Below are positions 35,601-39,478 of a stretch of 64,000 nt of DNA, piece after piece (positions within the stretch are counted from its first letter, which is position 1; every line of letters begins with the position of its first letter). The stretch covers positions 928,001-992,000 of the forward strand of contig CAWDVR010000002.1 of assembly GCA_963805975.1 (NCBI GenBank), written 5' to 3'. Made by a program: the position numbers and the translations under genes. The notes beneath the pieces are model-generated. The model was not told where the DNA came from. It did not search any database and saw only the letters and a list, made by a program, of their open reading frames with translations. The DNA comes from an uncultured Acidobacteriota bacterium (GTDB taxonomy: Bacteria > Acidobacteriota > Thermoanaerobaculia > Multivoradales > SZUA-115).

Positions 35601-36059
35601 CGCCAGGTCGAAGCTCTCGCCCGCGGCGCGGCCCGCCAGGCGCAGTGCCTCGGCCTTCGCCGCCTCCCCGGCGAGCACCGAGAGGTCGATCAGCGGCAGG
35701 GGCACCGGTCCCGGTTCGCCAATACGCTGGAAGGGCTCGCCGTCCTCGGCGCCGAAGGTGGTGCGCAGCGCCTCGTGGCGGGCCACGCAGGCGGAGAACG
35801 CGCGCGCCAGGCGGCCGGCGTCCACCGCGCCGTCCACCCACGCGGTCGCCGTGATGTTGTAGGCCGTGGTGCCGGGCACCAGGCGGTCGAGGAGCCAGAG
35901 CCGCTGCTGCGCCACCGACAGGGCATAGCGCGCGCCCGGCTCGCGGGGCAGCCGCGGGATGGCCGGCGGCTCGACGGCGGCGGTCTTGGCCAGCCGCTTC
36001 AAGAGCAGCGCCCGCTTCTCCGGCGACAGGCCCGCGATGCGCGCTTCGAGCTCGCTCAC
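32653..36059 (-). CDS. NRPS module 2: C-A(Gly)-T; frameshifted in the A domain
   Basis: [20 protein letters not shown]; pieces [26 protein letters not shown](W) across frames; LGGHSL. Confidence 0.85.
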
Positions 36060-39000
36060 CGCTCCTCCTCGCCGGAGAGCTCGGCCCGCGCCTGCTCTTC
36101 GGACAGGCCCTCGAGCTGCGCCAGGAGAGCATCGAGGTCGCTGTCGCCGGCCACCGCCGCACGTTGCTGCACGATCACCGTCGCGAGGTCCGCCACCGTG
36201 GGCGAGCGGAACACGTCGCGCGCCGCCAGCTCGACGCCGAAGGCGGCCTCGACCCGCGACACGAGCTGGGTGGCGAGGAGCGAGTGGCCGCCGAGGTCGA
36301 AGAAGTTGTCGTGGACGCCGACGCGCTCGACGCCCAGCACCTCGCGCCACAGGGCGGCCAGCGTCTCCTCGTCCGCGGAGCGCGGGGCGACGTAGGCCTG
36401 CTCGACGTCCGGCCGCGCCCAGTCCGGCGCCGGCAGGGCCCGGCGGTCGACCTTGCCGTTGGGCGTCAGCGGCAGGGCCGCGAGCGTCACGAAGGCCGCC
36501 GGCACCATGTAGTCCGGCAGGCGCTCGCGCAGATGGGCGCGCAGCTCCGCGGCGCTCGGGGCCTCCCCGGCTTCCGGCGCCACGTAGGCCACCAGGCGCA
36601 GCTCGTCGCCCGCGCCGGCGCTCGCGCGCCACCACGACCGCCTCGCGCACCGCCGGGGTGCGCGGCGAGCACGGCCTCGATCTCGCCCAGCTCGATGCGG
36701 AAGCCGCGGATCTTGACCTGGTGGTCGATGCGGCCGAGGAACTCGAGGTTGCCGTCCGCGCCGACCAGCGCGCCAGGTCGCCGGTGCGGTAGAGCCGCGC
36801 GCCCGGCTCGCGCCGCGAACGGATCGGGCACGAACCGCTCCGCCGTCAGGTCCGGGCGGCCGAGGTAGCCGCGGCCAAGCCCGTCGCCGCCGATGTAGAG
36901 CTCGCCGGGCACGCCGGCGCGGCACCGGCTCGCCGCGGCGGTCGAGCACGTACACCCGGGTGCCGGCGATCGGCGCGGCCGATCGAAGGCTCGCTCGTCC
37001 GCGCCCCGTTCCGCCGGCGCGAAGGTCGAGTAGGTGGTGTCCTCGGAAGGGCCGTAGAGGTCGTAGACGCGCGCCGCCGGGTAGTGCGCGTAGACGTCGC
37101 TGCACCAGCGCGTGCTTGAGCGGCTCACCGCGCCAGATTGACGCGTCGCGCACGCGAGGCGGGCAGGCCGCCCGAGCGCACCAGCTCCGCCATCGCCGGA
37201 CGGCACGGTATTGAGGACGCGTCACCCGCTCGCGCGCCGGCGCGTCCGGCGAGCGCCAGCGCGTCCTCGAGCAGGACGACCGAGCCGCCCGCGGCCAGGG
37301 TGACGAAGAGCTCGAAGACCGAGAGATCGAAGCACACCGAGGTCGAGGCGGCGACACCGGCCAGCTCCGCGTCGCCGAACACCGTCCGCGCCCAGGCGAT
37401 GAAGGCGGCCACGGCGCGGCGCCGGGATGGCGACCCCCTTCGGCCGCCCGGTGGAGCCCGAGGTGTAGATGACGTAGCGCGAGCCGCTCCGCCGGCAGCG
37501 GCCCGGCCGGGCGCAGCAGAGCCAGGGCTTCGCGGGGCGAGGGCCCGGGCGCAGCGGCCGTCGCCCGCGCTTCCTCCCTGTCCAGCAACAGCACCCGTGC
37601 CGCGCCCGCGGGCAGAGTGCCGAGGAGCGCGCTCTCGGTGAGCAACAGCGCGCAGCGGCTGTCCTCGAGCATGAAGGCGATGCGCTCGGCCGGGTAGGCG
37701 GGGTCGAGCGGCACGTAGGCGCCGCCGGCCCCGAGCACCGCCAGGAGGGCCATCACCAGGTCGGGCGTGCGGCGGGCGCAGACCCCCACCCGCACCTCCG
37801 GCCCCACTCCCAGCCGTTGGAGCTCGAGGGCCAGCCCCGCGGCGCGCGCGAAGAGCTCGCCGTAGCCGAGGCTCGCCTCGCCGTGGAAGAGGGCCGGCCG
37901 GGCGGGGGCCGCCTCGGCCTGCGCCCCGAACAGCTCGAAGGCATCGGCCTCCGGCCGCGGGGCGAGGGGCACGTGCCGCCGGTCCGCCGCCAAGCCCGCC
38001 AGCTCGCCGGCGGTCAAGAGCGGCAGCCGGCCGAGCGGGCGTTCGGGGGCGGCCAGAGCAGCCGCCAGCAGGGTCTCGACATGGCCCAGCAGGCGATCGA
38101 CGGTCGGCGCGGTGAAGAGGTCGGTCGCGTACTCGGCCTGGAGCTCCAGGTGCTCCGGGCCGCGGCGGACCACCAGCGAGAGATCGAACTTCGACGAGGC
38201 GCTATCCACCGGGTCCACACGCACCGCGAGGCCGGGCATGGCGATCGCCTCGTCGGCCTCGAGGCTGAACATCACCTGGAAGATCGGCGCGCGCGACAGG
38301 TCGCGGGACGGCGCCAACGCCTCGACCAGGCGCTCGAAGGGCAGGTGCTGGTGGGCGTCGGCGTCCAGCACCTGGCGCGAGGCAATGCGCACCGCGTCGC
38401 TGAAGGAGAGCTCGGGAGCGAGGTCGAAGCGCAGCGGCAGGGTGTTGACGAAGAAACCGATCAGCTCGTCGATCTCGGCCCGCCCGCGGCCGGCGAAGGG
38501 CGAGCCCACCAGCAGCTCGCGCTGGCCGGTGACGCGGAAGAGGTAGACCGCGAACGCCGCCAGCAGCACGGCGAAGGGCGTGGCACCCTCGGCGAGCGCC
38601 AGGGCCTCGACCCGTTTCCAGGCGGCCGGCGGCAGGGTGCGCGTTCGCAGGGCACCGGCCGACGAGAGCTCGCGCGGCCGCGGGTGGTCGGTCGGCAGCT
38701 CGAGCACCAGGCGCGCGCCCGCCAGCCGCTCCTCGAAATAGGCCAGGTTCGCCTGCTCGGCCGCGAGCTCTGCCACCGGCCTGCCGTTCTGCCAGATGGA
38801 GAAGTCCGCGTACTGGATCGGCAGCTCCGGGAGCGGGGACGGCGAGCCCGCGAGCCGCGCCGCGTAGAGGGCCGCCAGCTCGCGGAAGAAGATGGCGAGC
38901 GACCAGCCGTCGACCACGATGTGGTGGAAGGAGAGGAAGAGGTCGTGCTCCTCCGGCCCGAGCCGGAAGAGGCGCGCGGCAACCAGCGGCCCGCGCGCCA

Positions 39001-39478
39001 GGTCGAAGGGCTTCTCCGCCTCCTCGCGCAGGCGCCGCTCGAGCTCGGCCGCGGCGTCGGCCCGGCCGGCCAGATCTTCCCCGCCGGCCAGATCTTCGAG
39101 GTGCAGGCCGATCGCGAGCTGCTCGGCGATCCTCTGCACCGGTCCTTCCGCCGTGCGCGCGAAGGTGGTGCGCAGCACCTCGTGGTGGGCCAGGAGGTCG
39201 TCCAGCGCCGCCTCGAGCGCGGCGGCGTCGAGCGGGCCCCGGAGCCGTACCACCTGCGACACGTTGTAGGTCGCGCTCTCGGGCGTGATCTGGTCGATCA
39301 GCCACAGCCGCCGCTGGGCGAGGGACAGGGGGATGCGCTCCGGGTCGCGCGGCTGGCGGCCGATCCTGGGCCTCGCCGGCGCCTTCTGGCTGCCGAGCTG
39401 CTTCAGGAGAAGCGCGCGCTTCTCGGGCGAGAGGCCGGCGATCCGCTGCTCGAAGGTGCTCATGGACGATTCGCTCAT
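36056..39478 (-). CDS. NRPS module 1: C-A(Ala)-T; frameshifted in the A domain
   Basis: HHIVVDGWS; pieces [31 protein letters not shown] across frames; LGGHSL; ATGA overlap with upstream gene. Confidence 0.85.

Follow-up and report, generated by a model that had tools for sequence, protein, structure and literature searches.

Why should the first subunit of a peptide assembly line carry a docking peptide when no other subunit precedes it? The question is raised by a nonribosomal peptide synthetase (NRPS) cluster within 64,000 nucleotides of DNA from an uncultured acidobacterium (contig CAWDVR010000002.1, positions 928,001 to 992,000 of the forward strand), which we call the window. The genes run in the order GT87 glycosyltransferase, C-A(Ala)-T, C-A(Gly)-T, C-A(X)-T-reductase, major facilitator superfamily (MFS) exporter, cytochrome P422, kynurenine 3-monooxygenase (KMO)-like oxygenase and DUF5916, where C, A and T are condensation, adenylation and thiolation (carrier) domains and X is the final residue. 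Overlaps of stop and start codons run from GT87 to MFS. NRPS1 is preceded by the GT87 gene, which lies outside the assembly line, so the observation in an earlier sequence-only reading that it lacks an upstream partner is correct.

The N-terminal docks of NRPS1 (N1) and NRPS2 (N2), both translated from the minus strand, share an identical peptide of 15 residues. Seven of the 15 codons, and 7 of the 45 bases, differ between them, and every change is synonymous. Taking the codon use of NRPS3, saturation predicts 7.09 differing codons against the seven observed. The residue that directly follows the peptide is Q in NRPS1 and R in NRPS2. The match exceeds chance, because the C domains that follow (C1 and C2) are merely 47% identical. 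In a second genome of the same genus the peptide is again the same on both proteins, with six synonymous differences between the copies. The earlier suggestion of selection at the protein level is borne out by these data, while a recent duplication as the source of the identity is out, since the synonymous sites are saturated and C1 and C2 have diverged. The variant dock on NRPS3 (N3) and the acidic tails that end NRPS1 and NRPS2 (tails 1 and 2) are also present as that reading described them.

To place the peptide in a wider context we label the genome of the window G000, that of the same genus G001, and a family of seven genomes f14 (G265, G206, G294, G195, G793, G783 and G794, the loci of G783 and G794 being on broken contigs). 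Searches with P422 gave matches in 9 of 61, 7 of 124 and 6 of 300 genomes; a search with the terminal module gave 14 of 401, scoring just two candidates per genome, so that clusters may have been missed. From these, twelve genomes with the cluster family were reached. Nine of these, G000, G001 and the seven of f14, have it in split form, and in all nine NRPS1 starts with a dock, keeps the HHxxxDG motif of its C domain and is preceded by GT87 or DUF5916, never by an NRPS (there is one frame break in the NRPS1 of G294). Over 20 residues in four f14 genomes the conservation of N1 is 82%, that of N2 71% and that of N3 67%, with 62-71% for C1. The identity of N1 and N2, which had been taken as special, does hold in the window and in G001, but the peptide is close to the consensus of its family and N1 and N2 agree at just 8-11 of 15 positions in f14. 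To judge by its sequence the 15-mer is a generic dock, and its identity alone is unsurprising. The noteworthy feature is rather the conservation of a partnerless dock together with a whole C domain.

We consider it an even chance that NRPS1 iterates by docking to itself, leading to (Ala)n-Gly-X aldehydes or alcohols; binding, iteration, substrates and product are all predictions from the sequence. N1 and N2 offer one and the same surface, from which we infer that Ala carried on the T domain of NRPS1 could be handed either to C1 of a second NRPS1, giving elongation, or to C2 of NRPS2, giving exit. A variable number of Ala residues would thus be added before NRPS2 adds Gly. NRPS3, entered via tail 2 and N3, would add X made by the P422 and the KMO-like enzyme, and its reductase would release the (Ala)n-Gly-X chain as an aldehyde or alcohol. 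The MFS protein would export the product, and the GT87 enzyme, or an O-methyltransferase in other relatives, would cap an aromatic hydroxyl. The sequence-only reading had proposed a length library (Ala)n(Gly)m-Y arising through docking of NRPS1. Iteration remains the best reading of the locus, while the signatures in the tails lean towards variation in Ala alone, as (Ala)n-Gly-X.

To what class do the docks belong? In the available part of the description of type 2 docking domains (PMC11221535), hydrophobic residues are spaced i, i+3, i+8, i+12 in the C-terminal dock and aliphatic residues i, i+3, i+11 in the N-terminal dock. Both spacings are matched here: tail 1 has L, L, A, L and tail 2 L, L, I, L, with I, L, L in N1 and N2 and L, L, L in N3. 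The same portion of that source attributes specificity to an acid in helix 1 of the C-terminal dock that pairs with a basic residue at i+14 of the N-terminal dock. In the window this pairing fits for D of tail 2 with R of N3; the corresponding residues are Q in tail 1, R in N2 and Q in N1. Across the genomes the residue in N1 is Q or L in all nine, and that in N2 is R in 4 of 8. A single-sequence AlphaFold2 model of the G001 NRPS1 contains helices at residues 4-9, 13-22, 1108-1119 and 1123-1130 (mean predicted local distance difference test score 36; 45-59 at the helices), a confidence too low to support a fold search. Profile searches of the PDB with N-dock and tail gave chance hits only and no docking-domain structure at E<=10, such short peptides lending the search low power. 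The docks are probably helical and type 2-like, the link to type 2 being one of residue spacing. Thus the helical pairing of subunits proposed from the sequence agrees with the spacing, but the rhabdopeptide/xenortide systems invoked beside it use a beta-hairpin and a short linear motif, according to the accessible part of PMC9113145.

How common are such docks, and do they normally have partners? A scan of the genome collection with a degenerate 12-residue motif gave at least 121 stretches, and the DNA of 78 loci was taken. Four loci that duplicated or overlapped others were dropped. The count then came to 78 hits, of which 69 had enough upstream DNA to judge; all counts from this survey apply among the matches listed. 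The stretches occur across many phyla, including cyanobacteria, Chloroflexota, Acidobacteriota, myxobacteria and actinomycetes. A C or ketosynthase (KS) domain follows the dock in 75 of the 78. Just upstream of 54 of the 69 judgeable docks there is an acidic tail or an assembly-line domain. The remaining 15 were flagged as partnerless; on reading, two of these had a tailed polyketide synthase (PKS) upstream, leaving 13. The exact 15-mer was found in two of the 78 hits (L131 and L182), from unrelated genomes. Among 19 pairs with an LSxxK-type dock, the tail in front is an Ala tail in 14, a Val tail in three and an Ile tail in two.

Which carriers might N1 bind? G000 contains 76 matches to condensation domains and 70 to carrier domains. 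A profile made from 25 tails was searched against G000, G001, G206, G294 and G195 (E<=1), and in all five the matches on carriers were the tails of NRPS1 and NRPS2 alone (tail 1 alone in G195). No other carrier with such a tail was found in the five genomes at this threshold; the remaining matches were weak, the next ones in G000 being short open reading frames (ORFs) that are not carriers, and the three to four free-standing acyl carrier protein (ACP)-like proteins of G000 have no acidic docking tail. The tails of NRPS1 and NRPS2 are thus the sole close candidate partners of N1. Other clusters in G000 use diverged pairs of docks, which makes it notable that N1 has been kept equal to N2. The residue at i+8 is Ala in tail 1 of 7 of 8 genomes and Ile or Leu in tail 2 of 8 of 8. 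Since LSxxK docks are found mostly behind Ala tails, the comparison leans towards N1 binding tail 1 rather than tail 2. A complex prediction for tail 1 with N1 scored 0.15 against a mark of 0.32, and carries no weight either way.

C1 itself has the appearance of an elongating domain. It scores 327 bits with Pfam, compared with 303 for C3, and has the elongation-type motif HHxxxDGWS. Between G000 and G001 the identity is 77% for C1, 75% for C2 and 80% for C3, so C1 is changing no faster than the others. It favours a size-matched internal-LCL profile over an acyl-accepting profile built from eight sequences by 28-72 bits, and the margins for C1 and C2 are alike (40 and 40 in G000, 28 and 31 in G001). 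In quick trees the f14 NRPS1 is a duplicate of NRPS2, their C and A domains forming sister clades (Shimodaira-Hasegawa-like approximate likelihood ratio support 98 and 95), whence the C1 of f14 would descend from an elongating domain. A starter role for C1 appears less likely.

A number of observations weigh against self-docking iteration. The exact sharing of N1 and N2 is limited to G000 and G001; to the divergence of the two in f14 we may add that N3 and N2 agree there at 9-10 of 15 positions. Seven of the nine split-form genomes belong to one family, and such kin are not independent. The linker behind N1 is likewise conserved, so the conservation of N1 may be structural. N1 lacks the basic i+14 residue in all nine genomes, although N2 lacks it too in four of eight. 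The two Ile tails among the 19 pairs that precede LSxxK docks indicate that the two channels may leak, and some ordinary multimodular lines (L116, L131 and L184) carry near-identical docks on several of their subunits. When left out of the profile, two of the eight acyl-type C domains preferred the LCL profile. An approximately unbiased (AU) test allows the C1 domains of G000 and G001 to join four C domains of G000 that stand at the first position (p 0.61); the tree constrained in this way was 4 log units better. Lastly, in the Kj12ABC system the tail and dock of the first subunit do not interact productively with each other, according to the available text of PMC9113145.

A first alternative is an ordinary collinear line making a single tripeptide Ala-Gly-X, with N1 and C1 kept for folding, dimer formation or support of the A domain, or with gatekeeping by C1 blocking self-elongation even where N1 does bind tail 1. 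We regard this as doubtful, while giving it more credence than any other alternative. Partnerless docks on first subunits are fairly common, as the 13 of 69 show, and multimodular lines repeat near-identical docks. The overlapping of four genes in the stretch from GT87 to MFS suggests a fixed order and ratio. VietABC, a system of the rhabdopeptide/xenortide type with docks, yields mostly one product in the portion of PMC9872161 available. Three collinear relatives, G008, G004 and G825, provide a contrast. G008 and G004 each have a single fused protein that shares the terminal module of the split form, with a partial C domain at its start and no dock, and longer leaders than the split form (Val-Ala-ketide-X in G008, Ala-Val-Ala-ketide-X in G004); the line of G825 is also longer, with its start beyond the contig end. 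Thus where no donor to module 1 is needed the C domain is partial and the dock is absent, yet 9 of 9 split clusters keep a whole C1 and its dock. Moreover N1 is better conserved than the docks that have obvious partners.

An alternative that we think unlikely is lipoinitiation by C1, which would load Ala with an acyl group taken from acyl-CoA or an ACP of primary metabolism in the manner of SfmA, the dock then being incidental. The order Ala, Gly, aromatic residue and reductase, with an aromatic hydroxylase, matches SfmABC and SfmD as far as the accessible text of PMC11285072 describes them. The AU test allows C1 of G000 to group with first-position C domains, two of the eight acyl-type domains resemble LCL domains, and G000 does encode free ACP-like proteins. 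However, there is an acyl ligase or ACP at none of the nine loci, and the free ACPs of G000 lack the acidic tail. C1 has HHxxxDGWS and not the D(F/L)xS found in three first-position C domains of G000, and in f14 it is a duplicate of C2. The C3 domain of f14 keeps HHxxxDG, a motif that is altered in Pictet-Spengler domains.

The sequence-only reading had also proposed a starter from a carrier encoded elsewhere with the same acidic tail. That N1 might recruit such a carrier, or a distant upstream subunit with a tail of this kind, is very improbable. Split clusters do exist in the group, as in G004, where NRPS and tailoring operon are on different contigs; other T-domain proteins of G000 carry diverged acidic tails; and the genomes, at 96% (G000) and 93-100% completeness, are not whole. 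But the tail profile found no such carrier in any of the five genomes searched, and the diverged tails are those of other assembly lines, whose docks have diverged as well.

If NRPS1 does iterate by self-docking, how did the arrangement arise? In the trees the A1 of G001 lies within the Ala clade, and the C1 of G000 and G001 is not sister to C2. With the duplication seen in f14, it seems that the docked first module arose twice, or that one lineage exchanged its domains. The f14 A1 (e.g. in G265, G206 and G793) is a Gly-clade A domain with a pocket altered to DIFQITLVYK, apparently a separate route to Ala-like specificity as judged from the pocket residues. More tentatively, and with rather less than even confidence, we suggest that these clusters represent a second, independently evolved class of NRPS making length libraries, in which type 2 helical docks serve self-iteration of the first module. 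This would have been reached twice, by duplication of the Gly gene in f14 and through a separate Ala module in G000 and G001, the products being (Ala)n-Gly-hydroxy-Trp or kynurenine aldehydes with a cap added by a GT-C glycosyltransferase or an O-methyltransferase, and the partnerless docks on about one-fifth of the first subunits surveyed would mark cryptic iteration.

What would the product be? Substrate codes were taken from the intact G001 copies (L026), since A1 and A2 of the window are frame-broken. The A1 code is DLFNNALTYK, which we take to specify Ala, and the A2 code, read by hand from the pocket, is DILQLGLVWK, presumably for Gly; the Ala and Gly modules of the sequence-only reading agree with this. 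A literature search for the Ala and Gly code strings gave no match; nor did one for the A3 and A1 codes find a match in print. The code of A3 is DAGDMGHVCK, and DAGDMGH[V/C]CK terminal modules are found in 11 genomes, together with P422, KMO-like and GT87 or O-methyltransferase genes. The accessible text of two reports (10.64898/2025.12.11.692455; PMC13307353) equates DUF6875 with cytochrome P422, a family of Trp hydroxylases. Three of the four P422 motifs are fully present in the window protein, which has the heme and substrate motifs, and a location within NRPS clusters, as here, is reported for several clades in what is available of the first of these. The best solved relatives of the monooxygenase are kynurenine 3-monooxygenases, and its VioC-like score is far under the family cut-off. 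Trp dioxygenase is encoded elsewhere in 5 of 5 genomes tested. As the P422 and KMO-like genes are in the operon, X is likely to be a hydroxylated Trp or a kynurenine derivative, with N1, C6 and C7 as candidate positions for hydroxylation of Trp. Tyr as the final residue is rejected, finding support in neither the A3 code nor the tailoring genes. A second KMO-like gene follows a DALDLGSVTK module in another NRPS cluster (G000:C5 ~285400-287000; G001 L031:10711-12048).

GT87 is present at the locus in seven genomes and an O-methyltransferase in four, never together. GT87 was not found in G008, G265 or G294, and elsewhere in the GT87 genomes there are only distant methyltransferases (27-36% identity). 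The two genes replace each other at the locus, which hints that they act on the same hydroxyl. The exchange lies beside the P422/reductase cluster (window 39475-41031; L013:5877-6989; the G265, G294 and G825 loci). No product of the cluster family was found in the literature searched.

Some further observations concern the relatives. In G004 a GT87-MFS-P422-KMO-DUF5916 operon has no internal NRPS (L011:15350-20000, G004:C1), and a fused NRPS-PKS with the same terminal module is on a separate contig (L235/L236, G004:C5). In the collinear relatives (G004:C5, G008:C26, G825:C32) a KS-AT-T module without a ketoreductase match stands directly before the X-reductase module; this could place a beta-keto amide beside the aldehyde in their product, and lead to cyclisation to a pyrrolinone. 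A metagenome scan with the N-dock and C domain of the G001 NRPS2 gave 79 loci, all 34-49% identical and none an orthologue. A weak phylum-wide search with the A3 core, scoring six candidates per genome, matched just G000 and G008 of 401 genomes. G000 has four other large NRPS or NRPS-PKS regions (G000:C1 1020-1062 kb and 1089-1131 kb; G000:C2 207-239 kb; G000:C5 181-290 kb). In that of G000:C5, parts of which are frameshifted, two modules have the code AAGDVGHVGK and one AAGKVGHVGK, without the usual first Asp.

The features of the locus are collected in Table 1. Relative to G001, A1 and A2 of the window contain ~41 frame-breaking indels, nearly all of them insertions of a single base; the indels lie solely in A1, A2 and the end of C2, with none in C1, T1 or NRPS3. 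A low-depth contig of run X1 is without the extra base at 34700 and that near 34743-34747. These frameshifts are probably errors of assembly. Pseudogenisation of NRPS1 and NRPS2 is unlikely, because the indels are mostly single-base and confined, the G001 genes are intact, and two of the indels are absent from the X1 contig. The cluster region is flanked by two large BNR/VPS10-repeat proteins (window 16103-21010 and 41156-44431, + strand); a HAD phosphatase is encoded at 21321-22190 and zinc ABC transporter genes at 46266-48687.

Table 1. Features of the NRPS locus, in window coordinates.
Feature	Position	Strand	Remarks
GT87-family membrane glycosyltransferase	39475..41031	-	Pfam PF09594, E 2.5e-15; stop overlaps NRPS1 start (ATGA)
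NRPS1: N-dock, C (HHIVVDG), A (Ala code in G001), T, acidic tail 1	36056..39478	-	A frameshifted in window assembly
N1 dock core, 15 residues, no upstream partner	39401..39445	-	
Tail 1, 17 residues, type 2-like C-terminal dock	36077..36127	-	
NRPS2: N-dock, C (HHIVTDG), A (Gly code in G001), T, acidic tail 2	32653..36059	-	GTG start overlaps NRPS1 stop
NRPS2 frameshifts in window assembly			End of C through A
N2 dock core, 15 residues	35997..36041	-	
Tail 2, 17 residues	32671..32721	-	
NRPS3: N-dock, C (HHIVFDA), A (code DAGDMGHVCK), T, reductase (TGATGFLG, YNQSK)	28079..32656	-	ORF intact
N3 dock core RLADLTPAQREALRR	32594..32638	-	
MFS exporter	26727..28082	-	GTG start overlaps NRPS3 stop
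DUF6875, cytochrome P422 Trp hydroxylase family	25868..26740	-	RxGxVCP, MxGxF, RxMx3Dx2F present; Dx2Q/Hx3K partly kept in window
Kynurenine 3-monooxygenase-like flavoenzyme	24509..25831	-	PDB KMO E 7e-91; NCBIfam VioC 191 bits against cut-off 760
DUF5916/CBM9-like protein	22192..24471	-	Adjoins cluster in relatives too

The survey turned up docks in other settings. At L117:1960, L141:14238, L143:10001 and L147:7007 the same N-dock is on proteins with no C or KS domain directly behind it, possibly tailoring enzymes recruited by carriers. In a second NRPS family (L122, L133, L174 and L130/L136/L170) the first subunit is a single C-A-T module with a partnerless dock of 17 residues and a short acidic tail. 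Its code is DVENVGGITK or close to it where readable, and three cases lie directly behind polysaccharide-biosynthesis genes; there are two docked subunits in L122 and three in L136, one L136 tail being repeated identically. NRPS genes with partnerless docks at L132:7681 and L135:10001 have flippase, glycosyltransferase or ABC-2 polysaccharide export genes immediately before them, a position suggesting that these NRPSs decorate surface glycans.

What would self-docking iteration imply? Docking-driven iteration of single-module NRPSs has so far been described for the rhabdopeptide/xenortide (RXP) family, whose docks are beta-hairpins. If a helical dock of 20 residues can do the same, then prediction of a collinear product would be wrong for a recognisable set of clusters, given that 13 of 69 docks are partnerless, and engineers would gain a short portable tag with which to tune chain length. 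If instead the line is collinear, it teaches that docks can be identical without upsetting the order of an assembly line. The cluster family is also a compact test of P422 chemistry. In the literature searched, mostly without subscription papers, neither the cluster family nor iteration driven by helical type 2 docks was reported. Searches for a first-module dock with iteration gave no match, those for type 2 docks with Acidobacteria or iteration nothing relevant, and that for KMO, NRPS and reductase an actinomycin paper only.

The known type 2 pairs CurG/CurH, CurK/CurL, Bamb_5925/5924, PaxB/PaxC and PaxA/PaxB have, in the descriptions available, the same spacing as the docks here, with an acidic tail and a basic N-dock placed between T and C or KS domains. 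They join successive collinear subunits, and in the accessible parts of the papers cited none is on a first subunit or drives iteration. The docks of the window resemble the PAX pairs, which the available part of PMC8251938 describes for collinear junctions. In overall order the cluster is close to SfmA-B-C of saframycin/safracin, where Ala, Gly and a hydroxylated aromatic residue are likewise handled by three NRPS genes, the line ends in a reductase and a heme hydroxylase is encoded (PMC11285072, as far as available). However, SfmA starts with a fatty acyl unit, and no ligase or ACP is found upstream at any of the nine loci here. SfmC contains a Pictet-Spengler domain and its substrate is a Tyr derivative, whereas C3 resembles a normal condensation domain (HHIVFDA in the window, HHIISDG in f14), scoring as LCL, and the tailoring genes suggest Trp or kynurenine; neither a Tyr methyltransferase nor an SfmE-like gene was seen at the window locus.

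The closest parallel in layout is with the RXP synthetases Kj12ABC and VietABC. These too have, in the sources available, two to three single-module subunits with a C domain and an N-dock on each including the first, and a C-dock on all but the last. All three subunits of Kj12 carry N-docks and act iteratively, according to the accessible text of 10.1101/349555; iteration is thus proven for RXP, where here we infer it. The RXP docks are beta-hairpin domains of ~65 residues that bind short beta-strand motifs, in the accounts available, in contrast to the predicted helical peptides of ~20 residues here, and NRPS1 has no TubC_N-type match in Pfam. RXP lines employ a terminal C domain, release by amines and embedded methyltransferases; by Pfam there is no methyltransferase domain in NRPS1 or NRPS3, and in their place are a reductase, the residues Ala, Gly and X, and the P422, KMO-like and GT87 or O-methyltransferase genes. 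The cluster is therefore RXP-like in layout, and stands apart from the RXP family in the class of its docks and the manner of release.

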